From an uncultured Pseudomonadota bacterium (GTDB lineage Bacteria > Bdellovibrionota_C > UBA2361 > CALMIO01), in the NCBI GenBank assembly GCA_937864035.1, contig CALMIO010000002.1:243877-307876 (forward strand): a DNA stretch of 64,000 nt, in the 5' to 3' direction. The notes below the pieces were generated by a model that was not told the DNA's origin, ran no database searches, and was given only the letters and a program-made list of their open reading frames with translations. Shown here piece by piece: positions 10,424 to 47,386 of this stretch (within the stretch, counting starts at the first letter, position 1; every line of letters starts with the position of its first letter). The translations under genes were made by a program, and so were the position numbers.

Positions 10424-10454
10424 TAAACAAAAATTGAGCCCAGATTGGGCATTG

Positions 10455-11390: not shown

Positions 11391-11409
11391 TTCATCCCCA
11401 CTCTCTTTT

Positions 11410-12105: not shown

Positions 12106-12168
12106 TCTTCTCTCCGAGAGCGCCTCGCAAAATAAAAGCTATTTTTGTTTTGGAACCTTCTGCCTTCT

Positions 12169-12486: not shown

Positions 12487-12702
12487 CTTAGTTTTTTAAA
12501 GCTTTAACATTATCCGTTCGAATTTTTCGTTCTAAAAACAGCTTAATAAAAATCAAAAGAAGCTTTGATCTGTTTTTAGATACGAAATCGTTAATTAAAC
12601 GAGAAGATGTAAGTTAAAAGAAAATCGATAAAGTGTCAATTGTACTGAAATTTTACGATAATTTAGGGGGCAAATACAATCTTTGATTAAGATTATTCTA
12701 CC

Positions 12703-13488: not shown

Positions 13489-13528
13489 GCTCTATTTATC
13501 AAAAGCGTATTCTTAAATCTCGATAACT

Positions 13529-13954: not shown

Positions 13955-14126
13955 CTCTTTCTTGATTTACTTTAGCTCTCTTTAAGTATGAGCGATTTTT
14001 TGATCAGAACAATTTGATCTTACTACAATATTTTTTAAAAGAAAAAAATTTTTTCTTTCTTGTTGAAAACGATCGAAAAATAATTTTATGTAGTGTTTTG
14101 CAATTTGCAAACAAAACTTAAATTAT

Positions 14127-15710: not shown

Positions 15711-16033
15711 AAAACAAAAAAAATAATTCTCCTATTGTCGTTTAAACTCAATATTTAACCCGACAAAAACGAGGCAAGTCGTTAAATTTGTTTTATTTTT
15801 TTCGACAAAAGTTGTTAAATTCTTGTGCGCCTTTTGTTTGTAAGATGTCGTTTATTAAGGTTGTTTTATTTGCTCGTTCTATAAAACATATATTTTTACT
15901 GTTGTTAACTTACAGTTTTTAAACAGTAAAAATATATGTTTTATAGGGGTTTGTTTTGTTTATCTACAACTTTTTGTTGTACTATTACTACTACTATATT
16001 TAATTTATAAATTAATAATATTAAAAAAGTTTT
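15711..16033. other. Candidate oriC: AT-rich dnaA-dnaN spacer with DnaA box TTATCTACA (15960-15968, one mismatch to TTATCCACA) and a downstream AT-rich putative unwinding stretch
   Basis: Seen directly in sequence. Flanked by dnaA and dnaN, the classic location of oriC. Confidence 0.45.
15879..15946. repeat. Perfect 25-bp inverted repeat (arms 15879-15903 and 15922-15946, 18-nt spacer containing GTTAAC)
   Basis: ctataaaacatatatttttactgtt and aacagtaaaaatatatgttttatag are exact reverse complements, followed by a T-rich run. Either a dnaA terminator or an origin-associated hairpin. Confidence 0.7.
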
Positions 16034-17152
16034 ATGCATATAAAAATAAATCAATCCGTCCTCAGTAGCGCCGCTATCAAAATAATCTCTTGTGCCGGAA
16101 AAAAAAGCACCCTGCCAATTCTTGCTAATTTTAAATTAGAAGCAGACAAGAACTACCTTAAAATACTAACTAGCGACCTTGAGATAACAGCAGTTGCTAA
16201 GATAAATTGCGTCTCTTTAAAAAGCGGCACAACAACAGTTAATGCTAAACTTTTTTGCGACCTTATAAGAGAACTTCCAGATGGGGAAATCAACATCTCC
16301 CTCGAGGATGGCGAAAGGTTGGAAATAACATCAGAAAGATCAAAATATAAACTCTCAGTTGTGCCAGCAGAAGGTTTTCCTGATATAAAAGGAACAGATA
16401 TAAAAACAAATGGAAGGATTCGAGCCGGAGATCTTGTTGAGATGATCAATAAAACCATTTACGCGGTTTCTTTTGACCAAACCCAATTAAACATAGGTGG
16501 CATAGGTTGCGACTATAACGAAAATAATTTGATATTTATTGGAACAGATAAAAACAGATTGTCGTTGATTAGCAAAAAAGCAGATGGCCTTAAAATAGAC
16601 AGAGAGAACCTTCCTATATTGCCACGTCGGGTTGCCTCCGAGATTAAACGAATAGTTGAAGCAGTAAACCCAGACGATATTTTAGGAGTCGACATAATAG
16701 ACGGAATGTTTATAGTTGAAGGAGATAACTTTAAAATATCAGCCGCCCTGATCAACGCGAGTTTTATAGGTTATTCTAAATTGCTTTCAGCGGAGGTTGG
16801 AAAAATATGCTCTGTTTTGTCTGGAGAGATCTCATCAGCGATTAAAAGAGCTTCCTTAATGGCAACAGGAGACGATATTAAGGTGGTGGAACTTGAATTT
16901 ACAAAAGATATTATAAACATAAAAGGAGCCTCTCTAGAATCAGGAGAGGGGTTTGAACAGGTTTCTTGTAAATACGATGGAGAGAGTTTTAGGGCTGGTT
17001 TCAACGCTCGATATCTTTTGGATTTTATAAATCCAATAAATTCTGACTCGATAGTGCTTTTTGAATTAAGTGGAGAAAAACGCCCACTAAAGATATATCC
17101 AGCCGATCAAAAAGAATATCTTGGCTTTATAATGCCAATGAGAAACGACTAA
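16034..17152 (+). CDS. dnaN: DNA polymerase III beta sliding clamp
   Basis: 372 aa, MHIKINQSVLSSA N-terminus, position after dnaA, three-domain length. Confidence 0.88.
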   Translation: MHIKINQSVLSSAAIKIISCAGKKSTLPILANFKLEADKNYLKILTSDLEITAVAKINCVSLKSGTTTVNAKLFCDLIRELPDGEINISLEDGERLEITSERSKYKLSVVPAEGFPDIKGTDIKTNGRIRAGDLVEMINKTIYAVSFDQTQLNIGGIGCDYNENNLIFIGTDKNRLSLISKKADGLKIDRENLPILPRRVASEIKRIVEAVNPDDILGVDIIDGMFIVEGDNFKISAALINASFIGYSKLLSAEVGKICSVLSGEISSAIKRASLMATGDDIKVVELEFTKDIINIKGASLESGEGFEQVSCKYDGESFRAGFNARYLLDFINPINSDSIVLFELSGEKRPLKIYPADQKEYLGFIMPMRND

Positions 17153-17283
17153 TAGTTCAATTATTAGATAGAAAATTTTAACAATCCAAAAGTTTTGTTA
17201 AAAATTACCCTTAGGCGTAGGCGCACAATTTTAATTTATTAAAATCCATAGCGAGCCCATTAAAAAATTAAGAAACTCGCTTT

Positions 17284-18378
17284 ATGCAAGTAACCAGAGT
17301 AGAGACAACAAATTTTAGAAATCTTATAAAGCAAACAATTTGTCTTGAACCAACTTTTAATCTAATAGTTGGTCGAAACGGACAGGGAAAAACAAATTTT
17401 TTAGAGGCGCTCTCTGTTTTAAGCAACTCTAAGAGTTTTAGAAGCGCGCAAACAGAAGATTTGATAAACCACAGCGAGAAGCAAGCACAGATTCGCTCAG
17501 AGATATTATCCTTTGAGGTTGTCTCTCGAATAGAAGCTATCTTACATAGAGATCGAAAAGAATTTTTTATAGATGGCAGAAAGTTAAAGAGCTTTTCTGA
17601 ATTAATTGGGAAACTATCTTCAATTTACTTTTATCCAGCAGATCTTGGATTGATTAAGGACGGACCAACATACAGGAGGACATTTGTCGATAAACATAGG
17701 ACATTGATTAACCCAACTGCGTTAACAAAATTTTATGAACTTTCCCGAGTTGTAAAAAACAAACTTCGTCTTATAAAAGATCTGCAAAAAATAACCCCAA
17801 AGGACCTAGAACCTTGGAATAAACTACTAGCGGAAACCTCAATCGAAGTTTGGAAAGAGAGAGATAACTTTATTAAACAAATTGGCGCGGAGGCGCGCGC
17901 TCTTTATTTTGAAATTACCGATGGAACTGGTGAATTGCGGCTCAGGCTAAAAAATAACAACCTTGATAAATCAAACATGGATTTTGACATTCTTTTTGGG
18001 ACAATTTCGGCTCGCGCTTCGGAAGAAATCGCGCGCAGGACTCTTTTGGTTGGCGCTCAACAAGATGAAATTGAAATAACGATAGACGGCAAAGACACCC
18101 GAAAATTTGCTTCTCAAGGAGAGGCAAGATCAATTGTGCTCGCTTTAAAGATGGCAACAATAACTAGCTTTGAAAATGAACGAAAAGAATCTCCATTGGT
18201 TCTTTTTGACGATGTTGACGCGGAGCTTGATATTCGAAGAAAAGAATTGTTTTTTAACATATTGCTTCAAAAAAATCGCCAGATAATAGTTACCTCAACC
18301 GAAGAATTGTCACAAAAAATAACAAAAGGTAGAGAATATAAAATTATCAAAGCAGAAGGTGGTTTTTTAGAAGGTTAA
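17284..18378 (+). CDS. recF: DNA replication and repair protein RecF
   Basis: Walker A FNLIVGRNGQGKTNFLEAL, C-terminal LLFDDVDAELD Walker B/D-loop, 364 aa. Confidence 0.88.
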   Translation: MQVTRVETTNFRNLIKQTICLEPTFNLIVGRNGQGKTNFLEALSVLSNSKSFRSAQTEDLINHSEKQAQIRSEILSFEVVSRIEAILHRDRKEFFIDGRKLKSFSELIGKLSSIYFYPADLGLIKDGPTYRRTFVDKHRTLINPTALTKFYELSRVVKNKLRLIKDLQKITPKDLEPWNKLLAETSIEVWKERDNFIKQIGAEARALYFEITDGTGELRLRLKNNNLDKSNMDFDILFGTISARASEEIARRTLLVGAQQDEIEITIDGKDTRKFASQGEARSIVLALKMATITSFENERKESPLVLFDDVDAELDIRRKELFFNILLQKNRQIIVTSTEELSQKITKGREYKIIKAEGGFLEG

Positions 18379-18440
18379 AAGGGTTAGCCCAACAAAAATC
18401 TTCGTCTCATAAAAAGACACCGAAAACGCCTTAAAACTAT

Positions 18441-18469
18441 TTGCTATGAACCCCCAGTTGGTATATAAT
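18441..18469 (+). promoter_or_regulatory. Sigma70-like promoter upstream of gyrB: TTGCTA, 17 nt, TATAAT
   Basis: -35 TTGCTA at 18441-18446, 17-nt spacer, -10 TATAAT at 18464-18469, about 55 nt upstream of the gyrB ATG. Confidence 0.45.
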
Positions 18470-18482
18470 AATATGGTATTAG

Positions 18483-20960
<2,478 letters not shown>

Positions 20961-23081: not shown

Positions 23082-25175
23082 CTACCTAAGATCAGCTTCG
23101 CTGATCTTGGAGTTTTTTGATCCTTCAATTTCAACTTGCAGAGGGGAAATTGCTATCAAAGAGCGCGGAAGAGGACACCCTATTTTTTTTGAAGGAACAA
23201 GCTCTCGGCAGGGTGTTGTTTGGCGGTTGATAGTTATTTTGGGGGGGGACTCATAGGTATTAAACAGCAAAATAAGAGTTCGATAATCATGTCTGGCTGG
23301 AATAAAAAATCTCGTGCTTGGAGACTCAAATAAGCGAGATTTAATTTTTATTAACAAAACCAGCTCGTTTAAAATTCTTACCACCTCTAAATAGTTGGAG
23401 TATTTTGCCAGACCCGACAAAATATATTCGCGCCGATCTACCGGATATTTATCAAGCCGGAGTATTATGTATTCAAGCTCTGGAAATTGAGCTAGGGTCA
23501 TTAACGAACGCTCGTCGGGAAAGTTGGCGAACTTTTTAGGTAAGAGCTGATGCAATCTTGGTCGTTGTCCACTGTAGCCATTGATACTTTTGATTTTTGG
23601 CGAGCGAATTGAGTTTAAATGCTCCATGTTGGTATTTGCCCAATCTTTCCAGCTTGTTATTTCGCCATTTTTGTCGAGTGGCGTTGTAACAAGCGGTAAG
23701 CTAAGAACCACCTTTTCATTTAAATAATTTGGCAAAGAGAGTTTTTTGGGGATCGGACCAAAGTTAATCGCTTGCGAATCGAACAGGTTAAATAATATAG
23801 AAAGTATCAATAAGATTAAGGAAAAACGGGATATCAGCAGACAATTTTTCTGATTTTGAAGGTGGATCAATTTTTCTTTAAGATTTTTTTTGAAGCCTTT
23901 CTTTTCCAACAAAAGAAGCAGAGAAACAACCAGAGCAAAATGAGAGAGAATGACGAAACGAGAGCAATCCCTCAGACTATCAAATCCGGGGAAAAAGTCA
24001 AATAAAAAATGATAGGGCGAAATATAAAAGCTACTAGAAATATTTTTTATATTTTCGGCCGGAGGGCCAAGAGAGAAAAGAAGTCCAAACCAAAAAATTA
24101 AAAGCGTGAAACTAAGAGGGAAAAGTTCTTTTTTTGTCCTAAGGGGAATTGATAAAGTAAATAAAAAGACAATCCATAAAAAGATGCTCTTAAGCCAAAG
24201 GGGAACATTCAATTCGGTTGCCGATAATAAAACCAGAGTTGCCAAAAGCTGAAAGAGCGAGGAAAGAAAAATATTTTGATGGTCAGAGGATTTTCTTTGA
24301 GCTTTCCAAGTTGAGATTAGCGCCAAGACAAAAGATAGAATAACAAAAAAAGAGAAAGAGGAGGCGGTTTCTCCGGAAAAAGGCAGAAGGTTTAAGACCG
24401 ATAGTTTAAAAGCAAACGGCTCATATAGGCGGCGCGCGCCGAAACTTTGCTTTACCACCAGATAAGGCGCGATAAAAATGTATAAAAAAGGTAGGGGAAT
24501 GAGCGCAAAAGAAAATCGCTTAATTGAGAACTCTCCCCTTAAAAAAGAGAGTACGACAAAAAGAAAAATAATTACTCCGATAAAGATAGTATAATAAACC
24601 GAGCAGAGAAAAGATAAACTTAATATGACTCCGCAGGAAAAAGCCGAAAGGGCCGTTGGTTTTTCGTTGAATAAATAAAGAGAGCGAAGTGCAAGGGGGA
24701 TGAAGAAAAAAAACAACAGTTGTGGGTGTCCTAAATTCGCTGAAAAATACGGCAATGACATTACCGCCACTCCTCCAAGGATAGATCTGCCAAAGGAAAT
24801 TTTTAAGACGCGCAGTAGAAGAAAAGAGCAAAATCCGTTTAGGGTTTCAGCTAAAAGTAACAACAAATTATAAGAAAGAGCTTCGCTAACCCCAAACGAG
24901 AGAATAATTTTCCAAAATAAAGCGGGTAAAATAAAAGAATCGCTCCAAGCCAAAGCTAATCCGTGTGGATAAAATTGAGGGATCTCAAACCAAGGCAGGC
25001 TAAAAATTGATTCTGAGACGATGTTACTTAGCCAAAAATATAGGCCGCCATCTCCTACTGCCCCACCGATAATATGTGTGTTAAAATAAGGTACTCCTGA
25101 TAGCCTTAGAAGGATCTCTAAAACAACAAAAAGAAAAAAAACAAAAAAATATTGTGGTTTAACGGGGTAGCCCAT
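23082..25175 (-). CDS. Large polytopic membrane protein (697 aa) with C-terminal soluble domain; putative GT-C-like glycosyltransferase, paralogous to 56113-57735
   Basis: More than 10 predicted TM segments. N-terminal loop DGGLYFWLSN...FYPHGLALAWSDSFILPA aligns with DAFQFLWNIWW...FWPFGSRLYLHTLTEGLLLPA of the 540-aa protein. Confidence 0.5.
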   Translation of the reverse strand: MGYPVKPQYFFVFFLFVVLEILLRLSGVPYFNTHIIGGAVGDGGLYFWLSNIVSESIFSLPWFEIPQFYPHGLALAWSDSFILPALFWKIILSFGVSEALSYNLLLLLAETLNGFCSFLLLRVLKISFGRSILGGVAVMSLPYFSANLGHPQLLFFFFIPLALRSLYLFNEKPTALSAFSCGVILSLSFLCSVYYTIFIGVIIFLFVVLSFLRGEFSIKRFSFALIPLPFLYIFIAPYLVVKQSFGARRLYEPFAFKLSVLNLLPFSGETASSFSFFVILSFVLALISTWKAQRKSSDHQNIFLSSLFQLLATLVLLSATELNVPLWLKSIFLWIVFLFTLSIPLRTKKELFPLSFTLLIFWFGLLFSLGPPAENIKNISSSFYISPYHFLFDFFPGFDSLRDCSRFVILSHFALVVSLLLLLEKKGFKKNLKEKLIHLQNQKNCLLISRFSLILLILSILFNLFDSQAINFGPIPKKLSLPNYLNEKVVLSLPLVTTPLDKNGEITSWKDWANTNMEHLNSIRSPKIKSINGYSGQRPRLHQLLPKKFANFPDERSLMTLAQFPELEYIILRLDKYPVDRREYILSGLAKYSNYLEVVRILNELVLLIKIKSRLFESPSTRFFIPARHDYRTLILLFNTYESPPKITINRQTTPCRELVPSKKIGCPLPRSLIAISPLQVEIEGSKNSKISEADLR

Positions 25176-28156: not shown

Positions 28157-31100
28157 TTATAAGGCTTTTTCTGATCCCAGGCGCAATAAAGATTCTTTTA
28201 AAAAACCTCCCCAAGCAGTTTTGGCTTCGAGTAGTTTTCTAGATTCGCCCTGAAAAACTATTTTTCCACCTTCCTCTCCCGACTTTGGTCCAAGCTCAAT
28301 GATCCAATCGGCGTTAGCCAATGCGATCTCGTTATGTTCGATCATAATGATGGTGTTTCCCGAACTAGCTAATTTTTTTAGAAAAGCCATCAGTTTGGCA
28401 ACATCGCTATTGTGCAAACCGGTAGTTGGTTCGTCCAAGATAAATAAGGTGTTGGATGCGTTTTCGATTGCTAACTGCTCTGCTAGTTTAATTCTTTGGC
28501 TTTCGCCTCCAGAGAGTGAGTTTGAGGGTTGTCCTAAAGTTAGATATCCTAAACCCAATTCACAAACAGCTAATACCACCCGATGAATGTTTTTGTAAGA
28601 AACAAAAAGATTTTTAGCCTCTTCGAAGGTTAAACCTAGTATTTGGTCAACACTCAAGCCTTCAAATTTCGGAATTTTTGCTAGTTCGCCATAGCGCGAA
28701 CCACCGCAAGTTTCACAGATCATTACAGCATCCGCCAAAAAACTCATTTCTAGCTTAATCTCTCCCAAACCTTTGCAAATTTGGCAACGCCCCTCGCCAG
28801 CGTTGAAGGAAAAATAGCTTGGCGAAAAACCTCGAGCTTTAGCCTCTAAGGTATTGGCGAAAATTTTTCTTATATGATCCCAAATTCCGAGATAAGAAGC
28901 CGGTGTTGAGCGAGAGGTTCCACCTATCGGAGATTGATCGACGGTCTTGACACCGATTATTTCAAGATCGCTAGTAATTTCACCGTATGGAGAAAGCCAT
29001 TTTTTTTCTTTGCCATATTTTGAACAGATAGTTTCCGCGATAGTTCCATTTACTAAACTGCTTTTACCAGCTCCAGATACCCCTGCCACCACGACTACGT
29101 ATTGTAATGGAATTTTTAAATCCAATGATTTTAGGTTGTTTAAGCGGGCATTTTTAACGGTGAGCCACTTTGTTAAAAATTTTTTTTCGGAAGCTTCGAC
29201 CTCAATATTATTGAAAGAAAGAGCTTCAGCGACTTTAAAATTTTTTGAGTCTCCGTTATAGATAATTTTGCCACCGTTTTTACCCCCACCCGGACCAACG
29301 TCAATCACATAATCAGCCGCTCGAATTGATTCGAGATCGTGCTCAATCATTAAAACGGAGTTGCCTTGCTCGACCAGTTCCCTGAGAGCCGCTAGCGTTA
29401 ATCTATTTTCGAGAGGATGAAGCCCCGCGCTTGGTTCGTCAAATATATAAAACGTGCCCGTAAGGGGCGAGCCTATAGCTGAGGCAATTCTGAGCCTTTG
29501 CAGTTCGCCGCTAGAGAGTTGGCGGGCGCTTCTGTCAAGCGGCAGGTAACTCAAGCCCAGTTTAATTAACGTTTCTAACCTCCTTTCGCACTCTGAGATA
29601 ATAACCGGAGCTAGCTTCTCTAGTTTGGGAAAGCTTTTAAGGTTAATACTCTTTAAAAAGCCTAGCATTTCGGGGGGCGTTTTTGAGGCGGCTTCGGCTA
29701 TATTAAGACCGTTGATTGTCAAACAGAGAGCTTCCCTTTTTAATCTGGCGCCGCCGCAAAATTTACAAAAAGCGCCAGTTTCTTCAAAGCCGCTTCCCGA
29801 ACAAGATGGACAAGCACCGCGTCTAGAGATAAATGAGAGATCTTCCGGATCGGGTTTTGAAAACCCCCGTCCGCACTCAGAGCAACTTCTTTTGGCGCTA
29901 TAAAGATAAGAATTGTTATCAGAAAAAATTTCGAGCGCTCCTTCTCCAAGAGCTAGCGCCTTGTTAACGCACTCTATTAGCAAGTCAGAGGGAATATTAG
30001 CTGGATTTAATTTGCCAATGACGTATTTAATCCAGTGTTGTTTGTTGCGATCAAGAGAGTCAAGCGCAGAATTTGGCGAACAAAACAGGATTCGATCAAT
30101 TTGAATTTCGTCGTAACCTTCGTCTATTGCTCTTTTAATAATTTCATTGTGCTTGCCCTTTTTGCCGGAAACTATTGGAGCCATTATTCTGATTGATTTA
30201 TTATAGCTCGTTTTGATTTCGGCGGCGATCTCTTCCGCGCTTAGGTCTGAAATTTTGGAAGCAGGGTGATCCGGGCAGTGTTGTAATCCGCATTTGGCGT
30301 AAAGCAATCGCAAATAATTGTAAGCTTCGCTCATTGTGCCCACGGTTGATAATTTTGAGGGCTGAAAGGTGTGCTGATAAACGCAAACAGTTGGAGGTAC
30401 GCCGGAAATATCCAAGATGTCAGGCTTTTTAAGCTCAGAGACGAATTGGCGGGCGTAAGGAGAAAGTGTTTCCAAATATCTTCTTTGCCCCTCGGCGTAG
30501 ATAATATCTTTTGCGATAGTTGATTTCCCAGATCCAGAAACGCCGGTTAAGGCAACTAATTTATAAAGAGGTATTTTGATATCTATGTTTTTTAAGTTGT
30601 GTTCTTTCGCCCCAAAAATTGAAATTTCAGCAAAAGATCCATCCTTTTTGAAATTTTTTTGAATAATTTTATTGGTTTGATCGTCTAATTTTGATCGTTC
30701 TTTAAGAGCAATCTGCGTATAAGATCGTGGATTAAGCTCCCCGCTAATAAAGTCATTCGGAGTTCCAACCTTAATTAATTCTCCTCCCTCAGAGCCTCCT
30801 TCGGGACCAAGATCAATAATCCAATCGGCGCTGGCTATTAGATCAAGATTATGCTCGACACAAATTATACTTTGTCCACGATCTGTTAGCTCGCGAAAGA
30901 GTCGAACTAAGCGAGCAACATCTTTGCGGTGAAGCCCGGTGGTTGGTTCGTCAAATATTAAAAGCGCCTTTTCTTTCTCGGCTTCAACAATAAAGGGGGC
31001 CAATTTAAGTCTTTGAGACTCTCCGCCCGAAAGTTCGCTTAACGGGTGTCCGAGGGTTAAGTGTCCCAAACCTAATTTTTCTAACACCGAAGTTATTTTT

Positions 31101-33439
31101 GTTAGTTCGGGCAGATCGGAAAATAAATCGCCGCAATCAGAAACGGTGGTTGCCAAAAGATCCGCGGCATTTTTGTTGCGAATAAAGCATTCTAGAACCT
31201 TTCCCGAAAAACGCTTCCCGAGGCAAACCTCGCAGGTTAAATAAACATCTGCTAAAAATTGCATCTCTTCCACTAAATAGCCGGCGCCTTTGCAGGTCGC
31301 GCAACGACCGCGGTCGACGTTAAATGAAAAATGTGATTTTGTTAGTTTCCTAAGTTTGGCATCAGGAGAATTGGCGAGTTGGTTTCGTAAAACCTCCCAG
31401 ATTCCAGAATAAGTGGCGATGTTTGAGCGCGGGCTTTTAGCAAGAGAAGTTTGATCAACAAAAAGGATTTCATCAAAAGAATCTTTGCCGAAAATTTGTT
31501 CGCAGGAACCAGGGGAACTTTGAAAAATAACCTCTTTTACTAAGGTGCTTTTTCCGCTTCCGGAAACGCCGCTTATCGCGATCAACTTGGCGGCAGGAAT
31601 GTCAAGATCGAAACCTTTTAAATTACGAGCTCGTGCAGATTTTATGCTAATAGCGATCTTTGCCTTTTCCGAGTTCTCAACACCTTTTTCTGTTTCAAAA
31701 AAGGGCAATTGAAATTTGTTTGATTCTCCAAAATAAACGAGCGAGCCGCCATTGTTTCCAGCTCCGGGACCAATTTCTAGAACATTATCGGCGTTTTTTA
31801 GATATTCCAAATCATGTTCAACTATCAACACGGAATTTCCTTGATCTCTCAGGTCGTTTATAGCGGAGATTAAATTTTTCGTATCCCGCGAGTGCAAGCC
31901 AACAGAAGGCTCATCTAAAACAAACTGAGAAGAAACAATTCCACCGGAAATTGCGGCGGCGAGATTTAGGCGTTGAGTTTCGCCGCCAGATAAGGTGCGA
32001 GCTTGTCGGTCAAGGGTTAAATAACCCAAACCAAGTTTTAATAGATAATCGAGGCGCGACAAAAGATTTTGAAAAACTCCTGTCAGCTCTTTGGGAAAAG
32101 TGGAGAGAAGTAATGCTTTTTGATATTGCGAATCAAACCACGGTTTTAGCTCTTTTATCTGTAGCCTCCAAAGATCGGCGATAGACAATCCGCCAAGCCG
32201 ATAAGCAAGAGCGCTTCGCTTTAATCTTGAACCCTCACAACTCTTACACAAAACCTGAGAGCGATATTTTGAGAGAAAAATTCGCACATGAGTTTTGTAA
32301 CTTTTTTTCTCTAGTTTTTTAAACCAGTGATTTAAGCCAACGTATTCTCTGCTTTTGTGATTTAAAATTAAATCTTTTTGCTCTTGTTTAAGCTTTTTCC
32401 AAGGAGTTTTTAAATTTATTCCTTTAGTTTCACAAAAATTCAACAACCTGCGCCTAAAAATTTTCATTGACGCGCCCGCCCAAGGATGAATAGCGTTTTC
32501 TTCGATCGAAAGATCTTGATTTGGCGCTACCTTGCTCGGATCGATCTCGAGATTAAAACCGAAGCCTTTACACTCTTGGCAGGCGCCATACGGATGATTA
32601 AAGGAAAAAAGAGATGGCTTGGGAGCATCTATTGTTATATCGGAACAACCGCAACTTGGGATTTTGTTGTAGTTTATAACATCTATTTTCGGACCGGTAG
32701 CGCCCTCTGTTTGCGCCACCAAACTAGCCTTTCCGCCAGAAATAGAAAAAGCCGCCTCAACGCTTTCGGCGACTCGCTCTATTTTAAGAGTTTTTTTAGT
32801 TAATCTATCTAGCAAGATCAGAAGATAATCTTGTTCTTTCAAAAATGCGGGGCTTAACTCAGAAAGGTTGAGCAGGTTGCAATTTTTTTGATTTAGAACC
32901 CTTTCATAGCCAAAAAGAATTAACCTTTCAACCTCTTCAACAGGATTTTTTTTCTTAAGATTAAAGTTTGAGCATATATAAAAGATCGCACTTGGAGATC
33001 TTTCAAAAAGTTCAAAGATTTCTCTGGCGATTTTATCGCTGGTCCAATAAGAAAGCTGATTGCCGCAATTGGAACAAAATGGAGCTGCTAAGTTTGACCA
33101 GATGATTTTCAAGTAATCATCAATATTGCTTAAGGTGCCAACGCTCGATCTTGAGCTGGTAATTTTGGTTTTTTGCCTGATGGCGATCGCAGGGCGGACA
33201 TTTTTGATCGAATCAACATTTGGTCTTTTGACCTTCTCAAAAAATTGTCTTGTATAAGGAGAGAATGTTTCCACATAGCGCCGTTGACCTTCGGCATAAA
33301 CCGTATCAAAAGCTAGCGACGATTTGCCGGATCCGGAAACTCCGGTAACAACCGTCATTTGATCGTGAGGAATATCTATAGAGAGATCTTTTAGATTATG
33401 CTCTCTCGCCCCTTTAATTTCTAAATAGCGGCTTTTCAA
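28157..33439 (-). CDS. uvrA: Tandem-duplicated UvrA (two complete UvrA units fused, 1760 aa, four ABC ATPase modules)
   Basis: Four Walker A sites (GVSGSGKSS, GVSGSGKST, GVSGSGKST, GVSGAGKSS). UvrA N-terminal signature appears twice (EHNLKDLSIDIP...YAEGQRRYVETFSPYTRQF near aa 10-65 and EHNLKNIDIKIP...YAEGQRRYLETLSPYARQF near aa 940). Multiple CxxC zinc modules. Confidence 0.9.
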   Translation of the reverse strand: MKSRYLEIKGAREHNLKDLSIDIPHDQMTVVTGVSGSGKSSLAFDTVYAEGQRRYVETFSPYTRQFFEKVKRPNVDSIKNVRPAIAIRQKTKITSSRSSVGTLSNIDDYLKIIWSNLAAPFCSNCGNQLSYWTSDKIAREIFELFERSPSAIFYICSNFNLKKKNPVEEVERLILFGYERVLNQKNCNLLNLSELSPAFLKEQDYLLILLDRLTKKTLKIERVAESVEAAFSISGGKASLVAQTEGATGPKIDVINYNKIPSCGCSDITIDAPKPSLFSFNHPYGACQECKGFGFNLEIDPSKVAPNQDLSIEENAIHPWAGASMKIFRRRLLNFCETKGINLKTPWKKLKQEQKDLILNHKSREYVGLNHWFKKLEKKSYKTHVRIFLSKYRSQVLCKSCEGSRLKRSALAYRLGGLSIADLWRLQIKELKPWFDSQYQKALLLSTFPKELTGVFQNLLSRLDYLLKLGLGYLTLDRQARTLSGGETQRLNLAAAISGGIVSSQFVLDEPSVGLHSRDTKNLISAINDLRDQGNSVLIVEHDLEYLKNADNVLEIGPGAGNNGGSLVYFGESNKFQLPFFETEKGVENSEKAKIAISIKSARARNLKGFDLDIPAAKLIAISGVSGSGKSTLVKEVIFQSSPGSCEQIFGKDSFDEILFVDQTSLAKSPRSNIATYSGIWEVLRNQLANSPDAKLRKLTKSHFSFNVDRGRCATCKGAGYLVEEMQFLADVYLTCEVCLGKRFSGKVLECFIRNKNAADLLATTVSDCGDLFSDLPELTKITSVLEKLGLGHLTLGHPLSELSGGESQRLKLAPFIVEAEKEKALLIFDEPTTGLHRKDVARLVRLFRELTDRGQSIICVEHNLDLIASADWIIDLGPEGGSEGGELIKVGTPNDFISGELNPRSYTQIALKERSKLDDQTNKIIQKNFKKDGSFAEISIFGAKEHNLKNIDIKIPLYKLVALTGVSGSGKSTIAKDIIYAEGQRRYLETLSPYARQFVSELKKPDILDISGVPPTVCVYQHTFQPSKLSTVGTMSEAYNYLRLLYAKCGLQHCPDHPASKISDLSAEEIAAEIKTSYNKSIRIMAPIVSGKKGKHNEIIKRAIDEGYDEIQIDRILFCSPNSALDSLDRNKQHWIKYVIGKLNPANIPSDLLIECVNKALALGEGALEIFSDNNSYLYSAKRSCSECGRGFSKPDPEDLSFISRRGACPSCSGSGFEETGAFCKFCGGARLKREALCLTINGLNIAEAASKTPPEMLGFLKSINLKSFPKLEKLAPVIISECERRLETLIKLGLSYLPLDRSARQLSSGELQRLRIASAIGSPLTGTFYIFDEPSAGLHPLENRLTLAALRELVEQGNSVLMIEHDLESIRAADYVIDVGPGGGKNGGKIIYNGDSKNFKVAEALSFNNIEVEASEKKFLTKWLTVKNARLNNLKSLDLKIPLQYVVVVAGVSGAGKSSLVNGTIAETICSKYGKEKKWLSPYGEITSDLEIIGVKTVDQSPIGGTSRSTPASYLGIWDHIRKIFANTLEAKARGFSPSYFSFNAGEGRCQICKGLGEIKLEMSFLADAVMICETCGGSRYGELAKIPKFEGLSVDQILGLTFEEAKNLFVSYKNIHRVVLAVCELGLGYLTLGQPSNSLSGGESQRIKLAEQLAIENASNTLFILDEPTTGLHNSDVAKLMAFLKKLASSGNTIIMIEHNEIALANADWIIELGPKSGEEGGKIVFQGESRKLLEAKTAWGGFLKESLLRLGSEKAL

Positions 33440-33526: not shown

Positions 33527-34534
33527 TTAAGTTTTATATGTTAATTTACCATCAACATATACTGCTAAGGGAGAAAAATCCGCGCCCAAAATAACTTTAT
33601 CGCCAACAATAGTTTTTTTTATTCCTAAAAGAGATGCTTGGTTTAATGAGGTGATCAGCTTGAGTTGCTCAAGGGTGGGAGAGATAAGTTCAAAAAATTT
33701 TTTAACGGCGAGATTATAAGGCAAAACACTACCCGCTAACTTTCCATTTTTTAAAACGGCCGCTGAAGATCCTTTTTGAACAAAAACTTTTTGATCACCA
33801 AGAAAAAAACTTTTGCTTTTAGCTCCCATACCTGCAAGAGCGTCACTTACTAGCATTAACCTTCTGCCAGCAATTTTTGCCAAAAGCTTAATATTAGCTT
33901 CGTGCAAATGAACCCCGTCGCAAATAAAGCCTATTTTGGTGTTTTTGCTAAACAACGCGGCAAGTACAGGACCGGGCGCGCGCCCACAAATTGGAGGCAT
34001 GCCATTAAAGAGATGAGTTGCCAATGAAACTCCATTTTTAAAGGCGGCAGAAGCTATTTCGAAACTCGCTTCAGAATGTCCTAGCGATACGATTATTCCA
34101 TTTGCTTTTAAAATTGAAATTGCTTCAGCGGCATTTTTAAGTTCGGGAGCAAGCGTGACCATCGCCACCCCCTTGGAACGAGACCATTTTTTGATGAGTT
34201 TTAAGTTTATTTTTGAAACTTTTTCTTTTTGATGGGCGCCAATTCTGTTGGGGTTAAAAAAAGGACCCTCAAAATGCCACCCTAGAACGCGAGCCGCTTT
34301 GTCTGGTTTCTTAAGTTTTATTTTTTCAAAAACTTTCAGAGCCTTTTCGTAGGTGTCGATCGTTGAAGAGACTATGGTTGGCAAAAAAGAGGTTACGCCG
34401 TAACGCGGTAAAAGTTTTGCCACCGCCTCGATTGATTCTGGTTCGGTCGTGAAATCATAACCAAAACCACCGTTTAATTGGAGATCTATAAATCCGGGAA
34501 GACTAAAGATTTGATTCGTTTTCTTGAGAAACAT
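33527..34534 (-). CDS. NagA-like amidohydrolase (N-acetylglucosamine-6-phosphate deacetylase family), N-terminally about 45 aa shorter than canonical
   Basis: GFIDLQLNGGFGYDF matches the E. coli-type NagA motif GFIDVQLNGCGG, followed by GWHFEGPFFN. Starts 3 nt after the upstream IDO-like gene stop. Confidence 0.65.
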   Translation of the reverse strand: MFLKKTNQIFSLPGFIDLQLNGGFGYDFTTEPESIEAVAKLLPRYGVTSFLPTIVSSTIDTYEKALKVFEKIKLKKPDKAARVLGWHFEGPFFNPNRIGAHQKEKVSKINLKLIKKWSRSKGVAMVTLAPELKNAAEAISILKANGIIVSLGHSEASFEIASAAFKNGVSLATHLFNGMPPICGRAPGPVLAALFSKNTKIGFICDGVHLHEANIKLLAKIAGRRLMLVSDALAGMGAKSKSFFLGDQKVFVQKGSSAAVLKNGKLAGSVLPYNLAVKKFFELISPTLEQLKLITSLNQASLLGIKKTIVGDKVILGADFSPLAVYVDGKLTYKT

Positions 34535-34537: not shown

Positions 34538-35722
34538 TTAACTGATTATGTGAGCAAGAGTTTCATCTCGATGCTTTTCGAGATATTTAACAAAAGGCGT
34601 TCCGCCAGTTCCGACTTTATTTGGGTTGCTGGCGGTTTTTTCTGATTGAGAGTGTATATAAGAAACGGCGTATTCTAAGTGCAGGGATCTAAATTTCTCA
34701 ACCCAGCCAACGCATTTGTTGTAATTGGTCAAAGCGTTGCCGGCTTCGTTGCGGGCATTAAGAATGGCTTCTCGAATATTTGGTAGATTTTCTAAAACTT
34801 CGATAAATTTTTTGTGAGCGGGAGGCATATAGCTTCGCATCTCTAAAAGATATTGTTTTAAAAGATCATTTTGGTGATTTATTCCGAGCGCGGCGTCAAG
34901 CGCCGGAATAATCGAACTTTGCGCTCCAGTTTCGCCGCGAAATTTTTGAGGTTTGTTGCCATATTCTTCGACCCCCTCGTAAATTAAGCCGTCGGGCAGA
35001 GCAGGATGATTACTCCAGCCGTGAATATAGGGGCGAACTCTGTTGTAGTATATGTATGGATCGCACTTTTCTGGCATCCTTAAGAGGGTAGTATGAATAT
35101 TTTCGAGAGCTCCGGCTATGACGGCTAGCGTTGCCGAAGCGGCAGCGAAATCTTTGGCTTTGGCTTGCGCTGAAAGGTTTAAAAGTTGGTTTATTGCCCA
35201 CGAAGCTCGGGCTTCAATCTCTATGTGGATTGTCACGAACCAATCTTCGTCTTGACCTCCTAAAAAATTTTGCCTAAGCCCCAAATTTTCGACGGATATT
35301 TCAAGGTTATTATCAACAAGTCTCCAATTATTAAGCGCATAGGAAGCGTAAGAGAGCACGGGCGGTCTGCCTAATAAAGAACCAATTTTATGCCAAGGAA
35401 CTGCCAAGGAGGCTGGAATTGATCCCGGAATTTTTTTCTCTCCCCAAACATAGGCATGACCCAAAAATGAAAGGATCATAAAGGCGCGTTCGCGCTCGGC
35501 TCGCGAATTTAACTTTTCAACTGGCAACTTTTTAAGTTTGGCGATTTTTTGTTTTACTTGATCGCAAAGTAAGAGCTTTGGGAGTTCAGCGCCGAGTTCA
35601 TCGACAATCTCCCATTCTTTAGAAAGCTTTGACAGCGGCTCCGTGTTAGGCAAAAAGCCGTTATTTGGATCTATTTCAAAGTCGGCGTTTGAATATTTAT
35701 TTTCGTTTGGTATAGAATTCAT
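34538..35722 (-). CDS. Indoleamine 2,3-dioxygenase (IDO) family heme dioxygenase homolog
   Basis: Three blocks match animal IDO1: FRGETGAQSS (IDO1 FAGGSAGQSS), EMRSYMPPAHKKF (IDO1 DMRRYMPPAHRNF, includes the proximal heme His) and VGTGGTPFVKYLEK (IDO1 KGTGGTDLMNFLK). 394 aa. Confidence 0.75.
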   Translation of the reverse strand: MNSIPNENKYSNADFEIDPNNGFLPNTEPLSKLSKEWEIVDELGAELPKLLLCDQVKQKIAKLKKLPVEKLNSRAERERAFMILSFLGHAYVWGEKKIPGSIPASLAVPWHKIGSLLGRPPVLSYASYALNNWRLVDNNLEISVENLGLRQNFLGGQDEDWFVTIHIEIEARASWAINQLLNLSAQAKAKDFAAASATLAVIAGALENIHTTLLRMPEKCDPYIYYNRVRPYIHGWSNHPALPDGLIYEGVEEYGNKPQKFRGETGAQSSIIPALDAALGINHQNDLLKQYLLEMRSYMPPAHKKFIEVLENLPNIREAILNARNEAGNALTNYNKCVGWVEKFRSLHLEYAVSYIHSQSEKTASNPNKVGTGGTPFVKYLEKHRDETLAHIIS

Positions 35723-35785: not shown

Positions 35786-36658
35786 ATGAAAGGAATAATT
35801 CTTGCCGGCGGATCTGGCACAAGGCTTTATCCGATTACCAAGGCTGTTAGCAAACAGCTCTTGCCAATATATGACAAACCAATGATTTATTATCCGCTTT
35901 CAACCCTAATGTTGGCTGGAATCAGGGACATTCTTGTTATTACTACCCCACAAGATGCCGAGAGTTTTAAAAGACTTTTAGGAGATGGCGCTCAGATTGG
36001 TATTGATATTAGTTATGCCGAGCAACCTTCCCCGGACGGACTTGCCCAAGCTTTTATTATTGGAGAGCGTTTTGTCGGCAACTCCAACGTGGCCTTGGCT
36101 TTGGGTGACAATATATTTTTTGGGCAAGGGCTTGGTGAGTCTTTGCAAAGAGCAAAATCGAAAAAAAATGGGGCAACTGTTTTTGCTTATCAAGTTGCCG
36201 ATCCAGAACGTTACGGCGTAGTCGAGTTTGACGCGGAGGGGCGAGCCGTTCAAATAGAAGAAAAACCAAAGGCTCCTCGTTCAAATTTCGCAGTGACAGG
36301 ACTTTATTTTTATGACAACGAGGTTGTTGCTTATGCCAAAAGCCTTAAACCGTCGGCGCGTGGTGAGTTAGAGATTACTGACATTAACAAAATTTATTTA
36401 GAGAAGGGTTCATTACAGGTTGAAAAACTTGATCGCGGCACTGCTTGGCTTGATACCGGCACCTATGAATCGCTGATGCAGGCGGGGCATTTTATTCAGA
36501 CAATTCAGGAGCGTCAAGGATTAATGGTTGCTTGCTTGGAAGAGATCGCCTTTCAAGCAGGCTACATAGATAAAGATCAATTAGAAAAGATTGGTTTGAA
36601 GATGAAAAATAATAGCTATGGCAAATATCTCCTAAAACTAGCACAAGATGAGCTTTAA
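35786..36658 (+). CDS. rmlA: Glucose-1-phosphate thymidylyltransferase
   Basis: [39 protein letters not shown] is near-identical to the RmlA N-terminal consensus. 290 aa. Confidence 0.88.
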
Positions 36659-37898
36659 TCAAATTTTCAGAAAAGCCAACTTAAAGTTGCCCCTCCTTTT
36701 AACCCTTTTCTTTATTGTAATTACAAATGCTCTTTTTGTTAGTTGTTGGGTTGTTGCTGAAAATTTTGACAATAAAAAAGATCCTTCTGGAGATAATTTT
36801 TTAAAAAAAACTTCTCCTAGTGGTTGCGAATTGGTTTCAGAAACTTTAACTAACGTTGTTGCAGTCCGTGGGCTTGTTTCAAAAGAGCTGGTTGCTTGCT
36901 CTGTGTACTCAAAAAAAGAGGTAGAAAAGTATATTAGAGACACCCTTAATGAACAATTACCTCCTGAGAAACTTCGCCATGAAGAGATAGCGTTAAAAGC
37001 TTTGGGGCTTTTGCCGGAAGAATATAACTATAAAGATGGTTTGATAAGTTTATATTTATCTCAACTTGGAGCTCTTTATGATCCTCGCAAGAAACAATTT
37101 ATTATGGTTGATTGGTTGCCTAGTTTGTTGCAGGCGCCAGTCGTGGCTCACGAGTTGACTCATGCTTTGCAGGATCAACATTTTCGTCTTGATAAGTTGA
37201 TCGATCCAAAGATCGAAAACGGAGATCTGTTGTTGGCAAGGCTTAGCTTGGCAGAAGGAGATGCGACCGCTTTGATGTATGATTTTTCATTCTCAGGGTT
37301 GCTTGGCGGGAAAAAAGTAGCCGATCTTGCCGAAGTAGATGGTCTAGTTGGGCAAATGCAACTTTCTAGCAGAATAATTTCGGGTCTTTCGGGAGTTCCT
37401 AAATTTTTGCAAAGATTGTTATTATTTCCTTATAGCGCTGGTTTTAAATTTGTTCATTTTTACCTTAAAAGGGGAGGTTATGCCGAAATTGATAAGATAT
37501 TTCAAGATCCCCCTATAACTACGGCGCAGATAATCCATCCAGCAAGTTATTTAAAAAAAGAGCGTACAGGTAAAAAAATAGAGTTAAATCTTAGCGGCGG
37601 CGCAAAGATTATTTATTCCGATGTTTTGGGGGAATTTGTTTTAAGAGAATTTTTAGAGACTTTTTCTATTGCGGAACACGTTATAGATTCGATAGCTTCA
37701 AAGTGGCAAGGGGATTTGATGGCAATTGTTCAAGAAAATCAAACGAATAATCTAAAAATTATCTGGTTGGTTTCTTATGGAGATCGAGAGAGCGCCAAAA
37801 AGTTTAAGGATCTTTTTAATCTTCCCTCTTTAGGGAAAAAATTTAGCGTTACTTTTGGGAGCGATGATCATTTGGTGCGCATCTCCAAAGAGCTTTAG
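36648..37898 (+). CDS. Putative secreted or membrane-anchored zinc metallopeptidase (HEXXH)
   Basis: N-terminal hydrophobic segment and [15 protein letters not shown] (HExxH) motif. Overlaps rmlA by 11 nt, suggesting co-transcription. Confidence 0.45.
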
Positions 37899-45349: not shown

Positions 45350-47386
45350 CTAATTAAATTCATATATTAAAAAGTCGCCGTAATTGCTGATAATTTTAAG
45401 ACAATTAAATGATTGGCTGTTTAAAGCTGGATAAGCTTTGCGCTCTAGCGGACCCAAGATCACGTATCTAATATTTTCTTTTTGCAGAAGAGTCCGTTTG
45501 TTTTCGCAGAAATTGTCAAGATAAATCTCTTTGGTAACATTATTTCTTCTCTCTGTTTCGGCATAAGCTTTATAAAGAAGATTGATGTGGTTAATCCATC
45601 CCAAATAACTCTGTTTGCCAGCAAGAGTTGAAATAGCGGAGGTGTAACTATAGGGGTTTCCCTGCGCCTCCAACACAACGCCTTCTTGAGCGTCACCTAG
45701 CTTTTTAATTGTCTCAGCCGCTCCGGCGAACTCACTCTCGATTTGAGACAAACCACGCTCTTTGGGTTGCATGACTGTGCCTTTAAATGATCTAATTTTA
45801 GTGGTATCAGAGAAAAAACCCGAAAGAACTATTAAAAACGCGATTCCTAATGGATAAGTTATATAAGAGATTTTTGGGAAACTTTCTTTAAATTTTTCAT
45901 ATAAAGAACCAAGCATATAAATTGCGTAGAGGTTTAGGAAATACCAATTAGAACTGTAAATTTTGAAAATAGTGTTCATTCGCTCATTTTCTCCCCCGTA
46001 AGGATCATCCATAAAGATAGTTTCGGGTAAAATTAAAAGAAATATGGCGGTTACCCCAAGGGCTTCAGCAACATTTTTTCTGTTGCATATTCTAAAGCAG
46101 ATTGTTCCGAAAAGGGGTAAAAGAACCCAAAGCGCTTCGCTTGAAAAAAAGAGAGGCACGGCCAGTAGCGCGCTAAAAAATCTCTCAAAAATAGTTTGTG
46201 CCGTAAAAATGGCGCCGAAGAAGATAATCACTAAAGGCACTCCAAAATGTAAGCCTAATTCACTTAAGTTAGTTCTTATTATCGGCGCTTTGACTAATTT
46301 AAAAGGATAACTTTCAACAGAGATTTCTTTTTTCATTAAGAACAGAGAAATTGATAAAATTAGCAAAAAAGAGAGAAGAACGAGCGCGTTTTGAGAAAAT
46401 TTTAGCTTATCAAATAGCTCTGACTTTTTAATGTTTTTTAAAGATTTAAAATTGACCGCCGCGAATATTAGCGAGAATAAAAATATGATCCAAATAGGAG
46501 CTTCCCAAGCATTGGCCGTGAATAACCAGAGAGGCATGGTTATAAAAGCGAATATGGCGAGAAGAATATGTCGCTCCAAGGAGAAACAATGCGGAATCGC
46601 TCTTGATAACAATAAAAAAGCGAAGGGTATAAAACCTAAATTCAAAAAATGTGGGTGAAGATCTCCAAGCAGAAAAGACCAAGCTGGAAATTCATTAATT
46701 GCTCCCTTTATTACCCTTGAAGGCCCCCACCAATTTTTGTCTTCAAGATAAAAATGCTTAATGCCAGAAAAATTTGAACCAACAGCAATAGCAACCGTAA
46801 AGCAAAATGAGCTAATTGAGTTGAATTTGAGAACAACCTTAAGTGCCGCATAAATAGAGCTTGCATAAAAAGCTAGAGAGAAAGCCGCTAAAGAATGGTA
46901 CACAACCCATGTTTCAATTTCGAGAAGGTTGCTTAAGACCGCCCCAAATCTATACCAATATATGTAGTACCCAAGCCTTTCTCCGGCAAACCAAGGCTCA
47001 ATTGGGAAGGTCGGATTGTTAATAACTGCGCTTAGTAAAGAGTAATCTCTCAGCCTTTCGCCGATCGGATAAAAATCTGGCCATAAAAGGCAGAGCTCAT
47101 AAAAACAAACGTAAGAAATAAAAAATATGGTTAACGGACCGATTTGAAAGGCAAAATTTTTTTTTCTAAAAGGATTTTGAAAAGAAAAATTAAAAAAAAG
47201 AGCGACTAGCAGTTGTATTAATAATAAAGATATGTAAATCGACAGCTTGAAAGAAACCGACAATTTGCTCAGCAAAACAGCCAACAAAGGAAGAGTTAAT
47301 AAAGTTAAAAACGTGAACTCATATATTCTGCGGGTCAAAGTTGAGTAAAATAAGGCTATTAGAGAGATTGCTAATAGGAGAATCAT
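45350..47386 (-). CDS. Large polytopic membrane protein (678 aa), DUF2298/YYY-like, putative GT-C-type glycosyltransferase
   Basis: More than 12 TM segments, shared motif FPAWSFLLGDLHPHF and Tyr-rich segment GYYIYWY. Paralog of the adjacent upstream gene. Confidence 0.55.
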   Translation of the reverse strand: MILLLAISLIALFYSTLTRRIYEFTFLTLLTLPLLAVLLSKLSVSFKLSIYISLLLIQLLVALFFNFSFQNPFRKKNFAFQIGPLTIFFISYVCFYELCLLWPDFYPIGERLRDYSLLSAVINNPTFPIEPWFAGERLGYYIYWYRFGAVLSNLLEIETWVVYHSLAAFSLAFYASSIYAALKVVLKFNSISSFCFTVAIAVGSNFSGIKHFYLEDKNWWGPSRVIKGAINEFPAWSFLLGDLHPHFLNLGFIPFAFLLLSRAIPHCFSLERHILLAIFAFITMPLWLFTANAWEAPIWIIFLFSLIFAAVNFKSLKNIKKSELFDKLKFSQNALVLLSFLLILSISLFLMKKEISVESYPFKLVKAPIIRTNLSELGLHFGVPLVIIFFGAIFTAQTIFERFFSALLAVPLFFSSEALWVLLPLFGTICFRICNRKNVAEALGVTAIFLLILPETIFMDDPYGGENERMNTIFKIYSSNWYFLNLYAIYMLGSLYEKFKESFPKISYITYPLGIAFLIVLSGFFSDTTKIRSFKGTVMQPKERGLSQIESEFAGAAETIKKLGDAQEGVVLEAQGNPYSYTSAISTLAGKQSYLGWINHINLLYKAYAETERRNNVTKEIYLDNFCENKRTLLQKENIRYVILGPLERKAYPALNSQSFNCLKIISNYGDFLIYEFN

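Follow-up and report, generated by a model that had tools for sequence, protein, structure and literature searches.

UvrA, the damage sensor of bacterial nucleotide excision repair (NER), is usually treated as a symmetric homodimer. A chain of 1760 amino acids (aa) that joins two UvrA units is encoded by a single tandem uvrA gene in the 64,000-nucleotide stretch of contig CALMIO010000002.1 analysed here (this whole stretch is called the window below). As judged from sequence, its N-terminal unit (unit 1) is the only one with an insertion domain and with the predicted canonical UvrB dock; unit 2 has neither, but retains a conserved domain of the same fold as the UvrB-binding domain. We infer, with moderate confidence, that the protein would form an intramolecular, permanently asymmetric UvrA pseudo-dimer that has a single insertion domain and a single UvrB dock of the canonical kind.

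Two UvrA units in one chain

The gene and the parts of its product occupy the following positions of the window.

28157-33439, minus strand: tandem uvrA gene, 1760 codons plus stop, TTG start (from the listing of open reading frames, ORFs)
30701-33439, minus strand: unit 1 (aa 1-913), a complete class I UvrA unit, colinear with Thermotoga maritima UvrA residues 5-913
33320-33343, minus strand: Walker A motif in the first nucleotide-binding domain (NBD-I) of unit 1 (aa 33-40), lysine invariant in 120 homologs
32657-33064, minus strand: UvrB-binding domain of unit 1 (aa 126-261), Pfam UvrA_inter at 23.9 bits (cut-off 23.3)
32750-32779, minus strand: UvrB/Mfd-contact helix ERVAESVEAA of unit 1 (aa 221-230), in which R222 corresponds to Escherichia coli R216 and E228 to E. 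coli E222
32249-32569, minus strand: insertion domain of unit 1 (aa 291-397), between CQEC (287) and CKSC (398), Pfam UvrA_DNA-bind (PF17755) at 58.6 bits
31547-31570, minus strand: Walker A motif in NBD-II of unit 1 (aa 624-631), lysine invariant in 120 homologs
30629-30700, minus strand: inter-unit linker (aa 914-937), hydrophilic and poorly conserved (within-family identity 0.30)
28160-30628, minus strand: unit 2 (aa 938-1760), without insertion domain, aligned with T. maritima UvrA residues 7-285 and 383-914
30521-30544, minus strand: Walker A motif in NBD-I of unit 2 (aa 966-973), lysine invariant in 120 homologs
29885-30268, minus strand: UvrB-binding-like domain of unit 2 (aa 1058-1185), Pfam UvrA_inter at 56.6 bits
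29756-29857, minus strand: KPDPEDLSF (aa 1195-1203) and Zn module 2, CPSC-x11-CKFC (aa 1210-1228), of unit 2
29060-29083, minus strand: Walker A motif in NBD-II of unit 2 (aa 1453-1460), GVSGAGKS, lysine invariant in 120 homologs

The head-to-tail fusion of two UvrA proteins, which was the core of the original prediction, was borne out. A motif scan located four Walker A motifs (aa 33, 624, 966 and 1453), two copies of the N-terminal signature AEGQRRY (aa 49 and 982) and four ABC signature motifs, and each half matched solved UvrA structures with E-values of about 1e-190 to 1e-200. The full-length protein scored 1622 bits against TIGR00630 (curated equivalog cut-off 729.8) and 1650 bits against NF001503 PRK00349 (cut-off 1147). 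The isolated halves reached 834.7 and 791.9 bits with the former profile, both above its cut-off, and 845.7 and 806.9 bits with the latter, both below. These motif and profile matches are beyond chance. The proposed alignment of the halves with each other gave 31–40% identity. Class I UvrAs normally consist of a single unit of about 940 aa, and the present chain departs from this norm with two units in its 1760 aa.

Both units have the catalytic equipment of UvrA. The Walker A, Walker B, signature and H-loop elements of the two ABC ATPase modules are complete in each of them. Among the best 120 relatives (1726–1924 aa long, 47–52% identical over 99% of the length), to which the homolog counts in this text refer, both units keep without exception the Walker A lysine, the Walker B Asp-Glu pair, the H-loop histidine and the DNA-binding R712 (E. 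coli numbering), and G502 is glycine in 119 of 120 in each unit. Mean pairwise identity of the core within the family was 0.76/0.79, 0.59/0.55 and 0.62/0.61 for unit 1/unit 2; since the rate of evolution of the ATPase core is thus equal in both, neither unit is decaying. Two positions of the signature-II region differ between the units across the homologs: that of R730 of E. coli (repair is abolished when this and three other DNA-binding arginines are mutated together) is S or A in unit 1 and aromatic (F, Y or H) in unit 2, and that of R722 is variable in unit 1 and K or R in unit 2.

The suggested check of zinc fingers and UvrB-binding domains showed that three zinc modules, as in class I UvrAs, and the UvrB-binding fold are retained in both units. 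The modules are C122/C125 with C262/C264, C287/C290 with C398/C401 and C713/C716 with C736/C739 in unit 1, and C1054/H1057 with C1186/C1189, C1210/C1213 with C1225/C1228 and C1552/C1555 with C1575/C1578 in unit 2. The description of both units as complete, at the same time, stands for unit 1 and fails for unit 2, whose alignment to T. maritima UvrA skips the insertion domain. In unit 1, the cysteine pairs of Zn module 2 lie 107 residues apart, a spacing found in all homologs inspected, and the intervening insertion domain (within-family identity 0.54) is the only one detected by PF17755. In unit 2, the corresponding pairs are joined by 11 residues (CPSC-SGSGFEETGAF-CKFC). This loop has 5–9 residues in 118 of the 120 homologs, and its length is variable, as the two commonest spacings fit just 38 and 28 of them; the PDPEDLSF signature is present in 101.

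AlphaFold2 models of the units had a mean predicted local distance difference test score (pLDDT) of 86.5 and a predicted template-modelling score (pTM) of 0.78 for unit 1, against 88.6 and 0.84 for unit 2, with a pLDDT of 90–95 in the loop region of Zn module 2 in unit 2. By Foldseek, the unit 2 model superposes on solved UvrAs with TM-scores of up to 0.84 (Mycobacterium tuberculosis UvrA). Counted from the E. coli-equivalent unit ends, the linker has 22 residues (family range 13–41, median 25), and its medians lie at 12–25 aa across independent tandem families.

The predicted UvrB dock and the dimer interface

In E. coli UvrA, R216 and E222 belong to the surface of interaction with UvrB and Mfd (Manelyte et al. 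2010, PMC3025350, citing Pakotiprapha 2009), and both are invariant in the UvrAs of E. coli, T. maritima, Geobacillus stearothermophilus and M. tuberculosis. The contact helix of unit 1 closely resembles its E. coli counterpart, QRLAESFETA. Across the homologs, unit 1 has R 77 times and Q 33 times at position 216, and E 90 times and D 20 times at position 222; R206 is retained in all 120, and R176 in 107. The helix at the same place in unit 2 reads DLLIECVNKA (aa 1152–1161); here, position 216 is L in 92 of the homologs, with F, M or I as other residues, position 222 is variable, and the R176 position is E in 99. Binding is predicted accordingly from these residues, with the canonical UvrB/Mfd dock kept by unit 1 only and lost from unit 2. 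The proposal that the halves are differentiated was thus sound, but the suggested split between damage recognition and UvrB loading was not, as the insertion domain and the UvrB/Mfd contacts both reside in unit 1.

The UvrB-binding domains of the two units share the same order of secondary structure elements (pLDDT of about 82–93 in unit 1), and that of unit 2 keeps the canonical core motif APIVSGKKGKH. Within-family identity of this domain is 0.31 in unit 1 and 0.51 in unit 2. An assignment based on Pfam scores and conservation, in which the domain of unit 1 was degenerate and that of unit 2 functional, was considered and overturned by the contact-helix residues.

The same pattern extends to tandem proteins outside the family with the PDPEDLSF signature. 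Among those of the same architecture, R216 occurs in 33 of 34 first units and in 9 of 34 second units; in tandems of two complete units, the corresponding counts are 33 of 35 and 25 of 35. The insertion domain and the contact arginine are therefore lost together, in the same unit, and this joint loss across independent families suggests that they operate jointly in one protomer.

UvrA dimerises through its ATP-binding-I helices (Y55-Y55 and F66-F66 contacts by Clostridium thermocellum numbering; PMC12796330), and seven dimer-interface positions read YSYAQFL in four canonical homodimeric UvrAs. Both units of the tandem protein keep the interface and DNA-wedge residues, including the self-pairing Y53 and F64. 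In the family consensus, the interface/DNA-wedge helix is AEGQRRYIETFSPYTRQFFDK in unit 1 (33233-33295, minus strand) and AEGQRRYLDCLSPYARQFIKE in unit 2 (30434-30496, minus strand). The interface version of each unit is nearly invariant among the 120 homologs, and the two units of one tandem protein are hardly ever identical at the seven positions (0/47, 1/35 and 0/33 proteins). Such unit-specific, invariant versions are as would be expected for a fixed heterotypic interface. The two positions that follow the wedge phenylalanine carry opposite charges between the units, D-K in unit 1 versus K-E in unit 2.

Pairing within the chain is suggested because the interface residues are kept, the interface versions are unit-specific, and the linkers are short and of similar length. 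In the mechanism proposed, units 1 and 2 would fold back onto each other through the canonical ATP-binding-I interface, and the resulting intramolecular pseudo-dimer would be the equivalent of the UvrA2 homodimer, with its asymmetry made permanent. It would clamp DNA with its single insertion domain (ID), and one UvrB, or Mfd, would dock on it by the canonical surface. The asymmetry would be fixed in the protein itself, whereas the canonical homodimer adopts it only on a lesion, as recognition-ID versus support-ID and as UvrA2UvrB1 versus UvrA2UvrB2. In the canonical dimer, which is asymmetric on a lesion, the flipped base is held by one recognition-ID, UvrB binding displaces the support-ID of the same protomer, and both UvrA2UvrB1 and UvrA2UvrB2 complexes exist (PMC11985968; PDB 9ga3, 9ga4). 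A tentative extension, which we regard as possible and rather less than probable, is that the protein would be an obligate asymmetric damage sensor: the one insertion domain would capture the lesion-bearing strand, each complex would hold exactly one UvrB, and the choice of strand would depend on which way round the pseudo-dimer binds rather than on the loading of two UvrBs with one then discarded.

Several observations weigh against the asymmetric pseudo-dimer with a single dock. The docking argument is built on two experimentally defined residues and the neighbouring invariant arginines, and the aromatic equivalent of M. tuberculosis Y323 is not conserved in the insertion domain of the family. 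The domain of unit 2 is nearer the Pfam profile than that of unit 1 (56.6 vs 23.9 bits) and more conserved (0.51 vs 0.31), and therefore must have some function, possibly that of binding UvrB in another way. Moreover, the model of Genta et al. passes the lesion from the recognition-ID to UvrB on the opposite protomer (PMC11985968), and in the tandem protein the insertion domain and the canonical dock lie in cis, both on unit 1.

The likeliest of the other explanations, although we consider it rather unlikely, is as follows: the domain of unit 2 would still recruit a partner, be it UvrB by a co-evolved surface, Mfd or another factor, and two partners would be loaded, or UvrB would be pre-loaded on unit 2, which has no insertion domain, and hence in trans to that of unit 1. 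The in-trans variant would amount to a built-in version of the model of Genta et al., in which the “support” protomer needs no insertion domain, and the proposed hand-over of the lesion to UvrB opposite the recognition-ID (PMC11985968) would suit a UvrB docked on unit 2. The conservation, the UvrA_inter score, the retained core motif and the confidently predicted fold of this domain favour such recruitment as well. It is contradicted by the replacement of the contact residues (L, F, M or I at 216, a variable 222, and E for R176) in unit 2, while unit 1 keeps them, and by the repetition of this loss in most other families of the same architecture; in addition, one UvrB surface is unlikely to fit both domains.

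Pairing between molecules, which we judge distinctly unlikely, would give a fully canonical UvrA2 made of unit 1 and unit 1' together with a dimer of unit 2 and unit 2', or else chains, and the fusion would then merely tether a canonical sensor to a second UvrA-like ATPase without insertion domains. Both units have Y53 and F64, which pair with themselves across the canonical two-fold interface; this speaks for it, as does the shortness of the linker (13–41 aa), the intramolecular reach of which is assumed. Nevertheless, a symmetric homotypic interface would resist the invariant, unit-specific divergence that is observed, and a unit 2 dimer would have neither insertion domains nor canonical UvrB docks, yet unit 2 is as constrained as unit 1.

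Compared with canonical class I UvrAs (E. coli; T. maritima, 3PIH; G. stearothermophilus, 2R6F/3UWX; M. tuberculosis, 3ZQJ/9GA2-5; C. thermocellum, 9GXK), each tandem unit has in common the domain order, the ATPase motifs, the Zn modules, the signature-II elements and the interface helix. Unlike the canonical homodimer, the tandem has two units per chain, a linker of about 22 aa and interface residues that differ between the units, and unlike canonical UvrA its unit 2 lacks the insertion domain and the R216/E222 contacts for UvrB. In the latter respect, unit 2 is the natural equivalent of engineered insertion-domain deletions (E. coli delta290-400; Bacillus stearothermophilus delta-ID; T. maritima delta117-399, PDB 6N9L), and 6n9l was among its Foldseek matches. 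The delta-ID UvrAs fold, bind DNA and support incision, and E. coli UvrA without the domain discriminates damage less well with incision not abolished (PMC3025350). In the engineered homodimers, however, the domain is gone from both protomers and discrimination drops, while the tandem keeps one copy.

A parallel is offered by mismatch repair, where the bacterial MutS homodimer, a symmetric dimer acting asymmetrically on the lesion, has its counterpart in the two diverged copies of eukaryotic MSH2-MSH6. Unlike MSH2-MSH6, the UvrA copies are covalently fused, and the division of labour put forward for them is deduced from sequence only.

Relatives, neighbouring genes and the reality of the frame

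Extra UvrA paralogs have roles other than NER in many bacteria (PMC9328131), and the tandem protein might likewise serve a side role resembling that of class II UvrAs (UvrA2, DrrC, Ecm16), for example in tolerance of intercalators or lesions, with a separate canonical uvrA performing NER. This we regard as more improbable still. Class II UvrAs, such as Deinococcus radiodurans UvrA2, DrrC and Ecm16, are also UvrA-derived ABC ATPases with altered accessory domains; in them the insertion domain is present and both the UvrB-binding domain and Zn module 1 are missing, and unit 2 is the reverse, having a UvrB-binding-like domain and no insertion domain. [quoted passage not shown] The scores of the full-length protein above the NCBI UvrA equivalog cut-offs count against a side role too, as does the position of the gene in the core chromosome near dnaA-dnaN-recF-gyrB, outside any biosynthetic or resistance cluster. 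A second UvrA-like ORF is absent from the vicinity of the gene in 70 loci, namely the window locus and the 69 related ones described next.

These loci come from a scan of GTDB species, each represented by a single genome, for the unit-2-specific peptide DPEDLSF[NHS]S, which returned 69 loci in as many genomes. They are uncultured metagenome-assembled genomes (MAGs) labelled Bdellovibrionota, Bdellovibrionales, Oligoflexia or “Deltaproteobacteria”, or bearing generic labels; the exception is one 4-kb contig binned as Phycisphaerales, probably wrongly. They include one complete chromosome of 2.28 Mb, CP129486.1. Wherever the locus is not truncated by the end of its contig, the frame stays open for 1763–1937 codons and contains four Walker A motifs, and no stand-alone unit without insertion domain was found among the 69. 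By strict patterns, 103 of the 120 homologs carry four Walker A motifs, two AEGQRRY signatures and four signature motifs. NCBI holds a 100% identical protein of 1760 aa (P0001, “excinuclease ABC subunit UvrA [Oligoflexia bacterium]”, from a MAG), which is present on 3 contigs of different sources, the longest of 1.05 Mb. A scan for promoters and terminators gave nothing above chance, with no promoter- or terminator-like site at the unit junction. The tandem UvrA frame is real and conserved. An artefact, be it a faulty assembly, the collapse of a tandem duplicate or a sequencing error that merged two genes (the frameshift, stop or collapse that the original prediction had allowed for), has a negligible probability, being contradicted by the identical protein on the 3 contigs and by the uninterrupted architecture in the 120 homologs and the 69 genomes, and a collapsed repeat is impossible because the two units are so dissimilar.

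The replication and other genes of the window that bear on the setting of the tandem gene are listed below.

3582-5498: mnmG
5534-8140: topA
14127-15710: dnaA
16034-17152: dnaN
17284-18378: recF
18483-20960: gyrB
23082-25175, minus strand: 697-aa polytopic membrane protein, no Pfam match
33527-34534: amidohydrolase
34538-35722, minus strand: indoleamine 2,3-dioxygenase homolog (full-length match to Pfam IDO, E = 3e-100)
35786-36658: rfbA
36648-37898, plus strand: 416-aa protein, hydrophobic segment at the N-terminus, HExxH motif, no Pfam family

The genes from 3582 to 20960 form a replication-origin-type cluster, the cumulative GC-skew minimum of the window lies at about 14–16 kb, and the window probably spans oriC. 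The immediate neighbours of the tandem uvrA are genes for a CNNM/CorC protein, an HD-domain protein, an amidohydrolase, an indoleamine-2,3-dioxygenase homolog and RfbA. Neither uvrB, uvrC, mfd nor a second uvrA occurs within the 64-kb window, and no uvrB, uvrC, mfd or single-unit uvrA lies within 7 kb of the tandem gene at the 69 related loci.

In 38 of the 69 genomes (L001-L069), the HExxH protein, probably an exported zinc peptidase to judge by its motif and hydrophobic segment, is encoded by the immediate divergent neighbour of the tandem uvrA, with a median gap of 152 bp; in the window, the genes for the amidohydrolase, the dioxygenase homolog and RfbA appear to be inserted between the two. 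At 21 of the 69 loci, a homolog of the 697-aa membrane protein follows downstream of the tandem uvrA in the same orientation (median gap 318 bp). A role of these two neighbours in repair was considered and set aside, no link being evident; their association with the gene looks like lineage synteny. Additionally, the window contains a pair of tandem, overlapping paralogous genes for DUF2298 membrane proteins of 678 and 742 aa (45350-49611, minus strand), and two ORFs with no Pfam match at E <= 1e-8 (53449-55437, plus strand, 662 aa; 56113-57735, minus strand, 540 aa).

Tandem UvrAs across microbes and their meaning

An exhaustive HMMER search with unit 1 against 1.84 billion cluster representatives gave 71,506 hits. 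The best 150 of these representatives (50% clustering) are nearly all tandem UvrAs of 1265–2343 aa, which dominate because two units double the score. The tandem UvrAs of this set (P0122-P0269, with P0153, P0184 and P0221 noted in particular) come in several architectures and include a few proteins of about 2340 aa. Architecture classes were defined by mapping the proteins onto E. coli coordinates, and the class of a complete unit followed by an insertion-domain-less unit comprises proteins of two colinear UvrA units, the first with a UvrB-binding domain and an insertion domain, the second with a UvrB-binding-like domain and under 70 residues separating the pairs of Zn module 2. The present protein belongs to it, with 134 UvrB-binding and 113 insertion-domain residues mapped in unit 1 against 137 and 3 in unit 2. 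Among the best 150, this class has 41 complete representatives, tandems of two complete units have 35, and tandems without both UvrB-binding domains (tandem class-II-like) account for 33 clusters; smaller classes include one with the reverse unit order in a Planctomycetota MAG.

The complete plus insertion-domain-less form was named in Polyangiaceae/Myxococcales (P0141), in a Planctomycetota MAG (P0168) and in the trypanosomatid endosymbiont Candidatus (Ca.) Kinetoplastibacterium crithidii (P0184), where the protein has 1809 aa. These and the other non-family tandems of this form have the same architecture as the window protein and the same tendency to lose R216 in unit 2; they differ from its family in having no PDPEDLSF and are only about 35–43% identical to it, and the node of their relationship had a bootstrap below 50. 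A tandem UvrA of two complete units (1916 aa) was found in Heimdallarchaeota (Asgard archaea). The PDPEDLSF signature occurs in only a handful of the best 150 representatives, and the window protein is placed in the family by this signature at aa 1195–1203 and by clade support for both units.

The separate phylogeny of the halves that had been called for was carried out as a neighbour-joining tree of units over 599 core columns, with the accessory domains left out and 13 family representatives included. It delimited a unit 1 clade (core bootstrap 84–91) and a unit 2 clade (79–100) of the family; the node connecting them had 12% bootstrap, and the tree did not resolve the deeper nodes. The distance between units 1 and 2 was 1.14, and that of either unit to canonical single UvrAs was 0.88–1.02; as the units are farther from each other than from single UvrAs, the duplication is old. 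In the 34 non-family proteins of the same architecture, unit 2 was nearer to family unit 2 than to family unit 1 in 30, and unit 1 was nearer to family unit 1 in 29. This positional signal was taken from between-family distances, nearest-neighbour analysis being dominated by within-family pairs; it is modest and would fit a shared ancient fusion with later losses of domains.

The suggestion that a giant UvrA hints at chlamydiae proved mistaken. The identical protein comes from an Oligoflexia MAG and the relatives are of Bdellovibrionota type. The double-length UvrA model NF001885/PRK00635 (1809 profile positions), whose members we take to be chlamydial, likewise describes two units in about 1800 aa, and unit 1 aligns with its positions 1–910. 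The 1760-aa protein is nevertheless not a member: it scores 990.6 bits where 3054 are required, and its unit 2, taken by itself, aligns with positions 398–909, in the first half of the profile and not the second. A tandem of two complete units (P0205) was colinear with 1625 of the 1809 positions and below the cut-off, and none of five low-identity representatives compared with PRK00635 reached it. The PRK00635 family thus appears, from these alignments, to be of a different architecture from the 1760-aa protein. With tandem UvrAs also present in Myxococcota, Planctomycetota, Ca. Kinetoplastibacterium and Heimdallarchaeota, the tempting inference from giant UvrA to chlamydiae is to be corrected in general: such proteins are too widespread to indicate taxonomy.

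The protein is public and annotated simply as UvrA, and double-length UvrAs have a curated NCBIfam model. No paper on tandem UvrAs was found in the literature searched, and as far as that search goes, the architecture-level picture and the Bdellovibrionota family with an insertion-domain-less second unit are undescribed. Tandem UvrA fusions are common across microbes, and what is reported here is a natural, unstudied variant rather than a rarity, which repair specialists may find useful rather than startling.

Recent cryo-EM work argues that UvrA turns asymmetric on a lesion (PMC11985968, PMC12796330), and the choice of the damaged strand and the number of UvrBs needed are open questions in bacterial NER. 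The natural tandem UvrAs of the present kind form a large set in which an asymmetry has become fixed by evolution, with four ATPase sites kept together with a single insertion domain and a single predicted canonical dock. As a tool, a covalent pseudo-dimer would allow mutations to be placed in one “protomer” only, which is hard with a homodimer. If the tandem protein is indeed an obligate asymmetric sensor, its family and the many other tandem UvrAs of the same architecture would be natural experiments on how the damaged strand is identified and on UvrA2UvrB1 versus UvrA2UvrB2.

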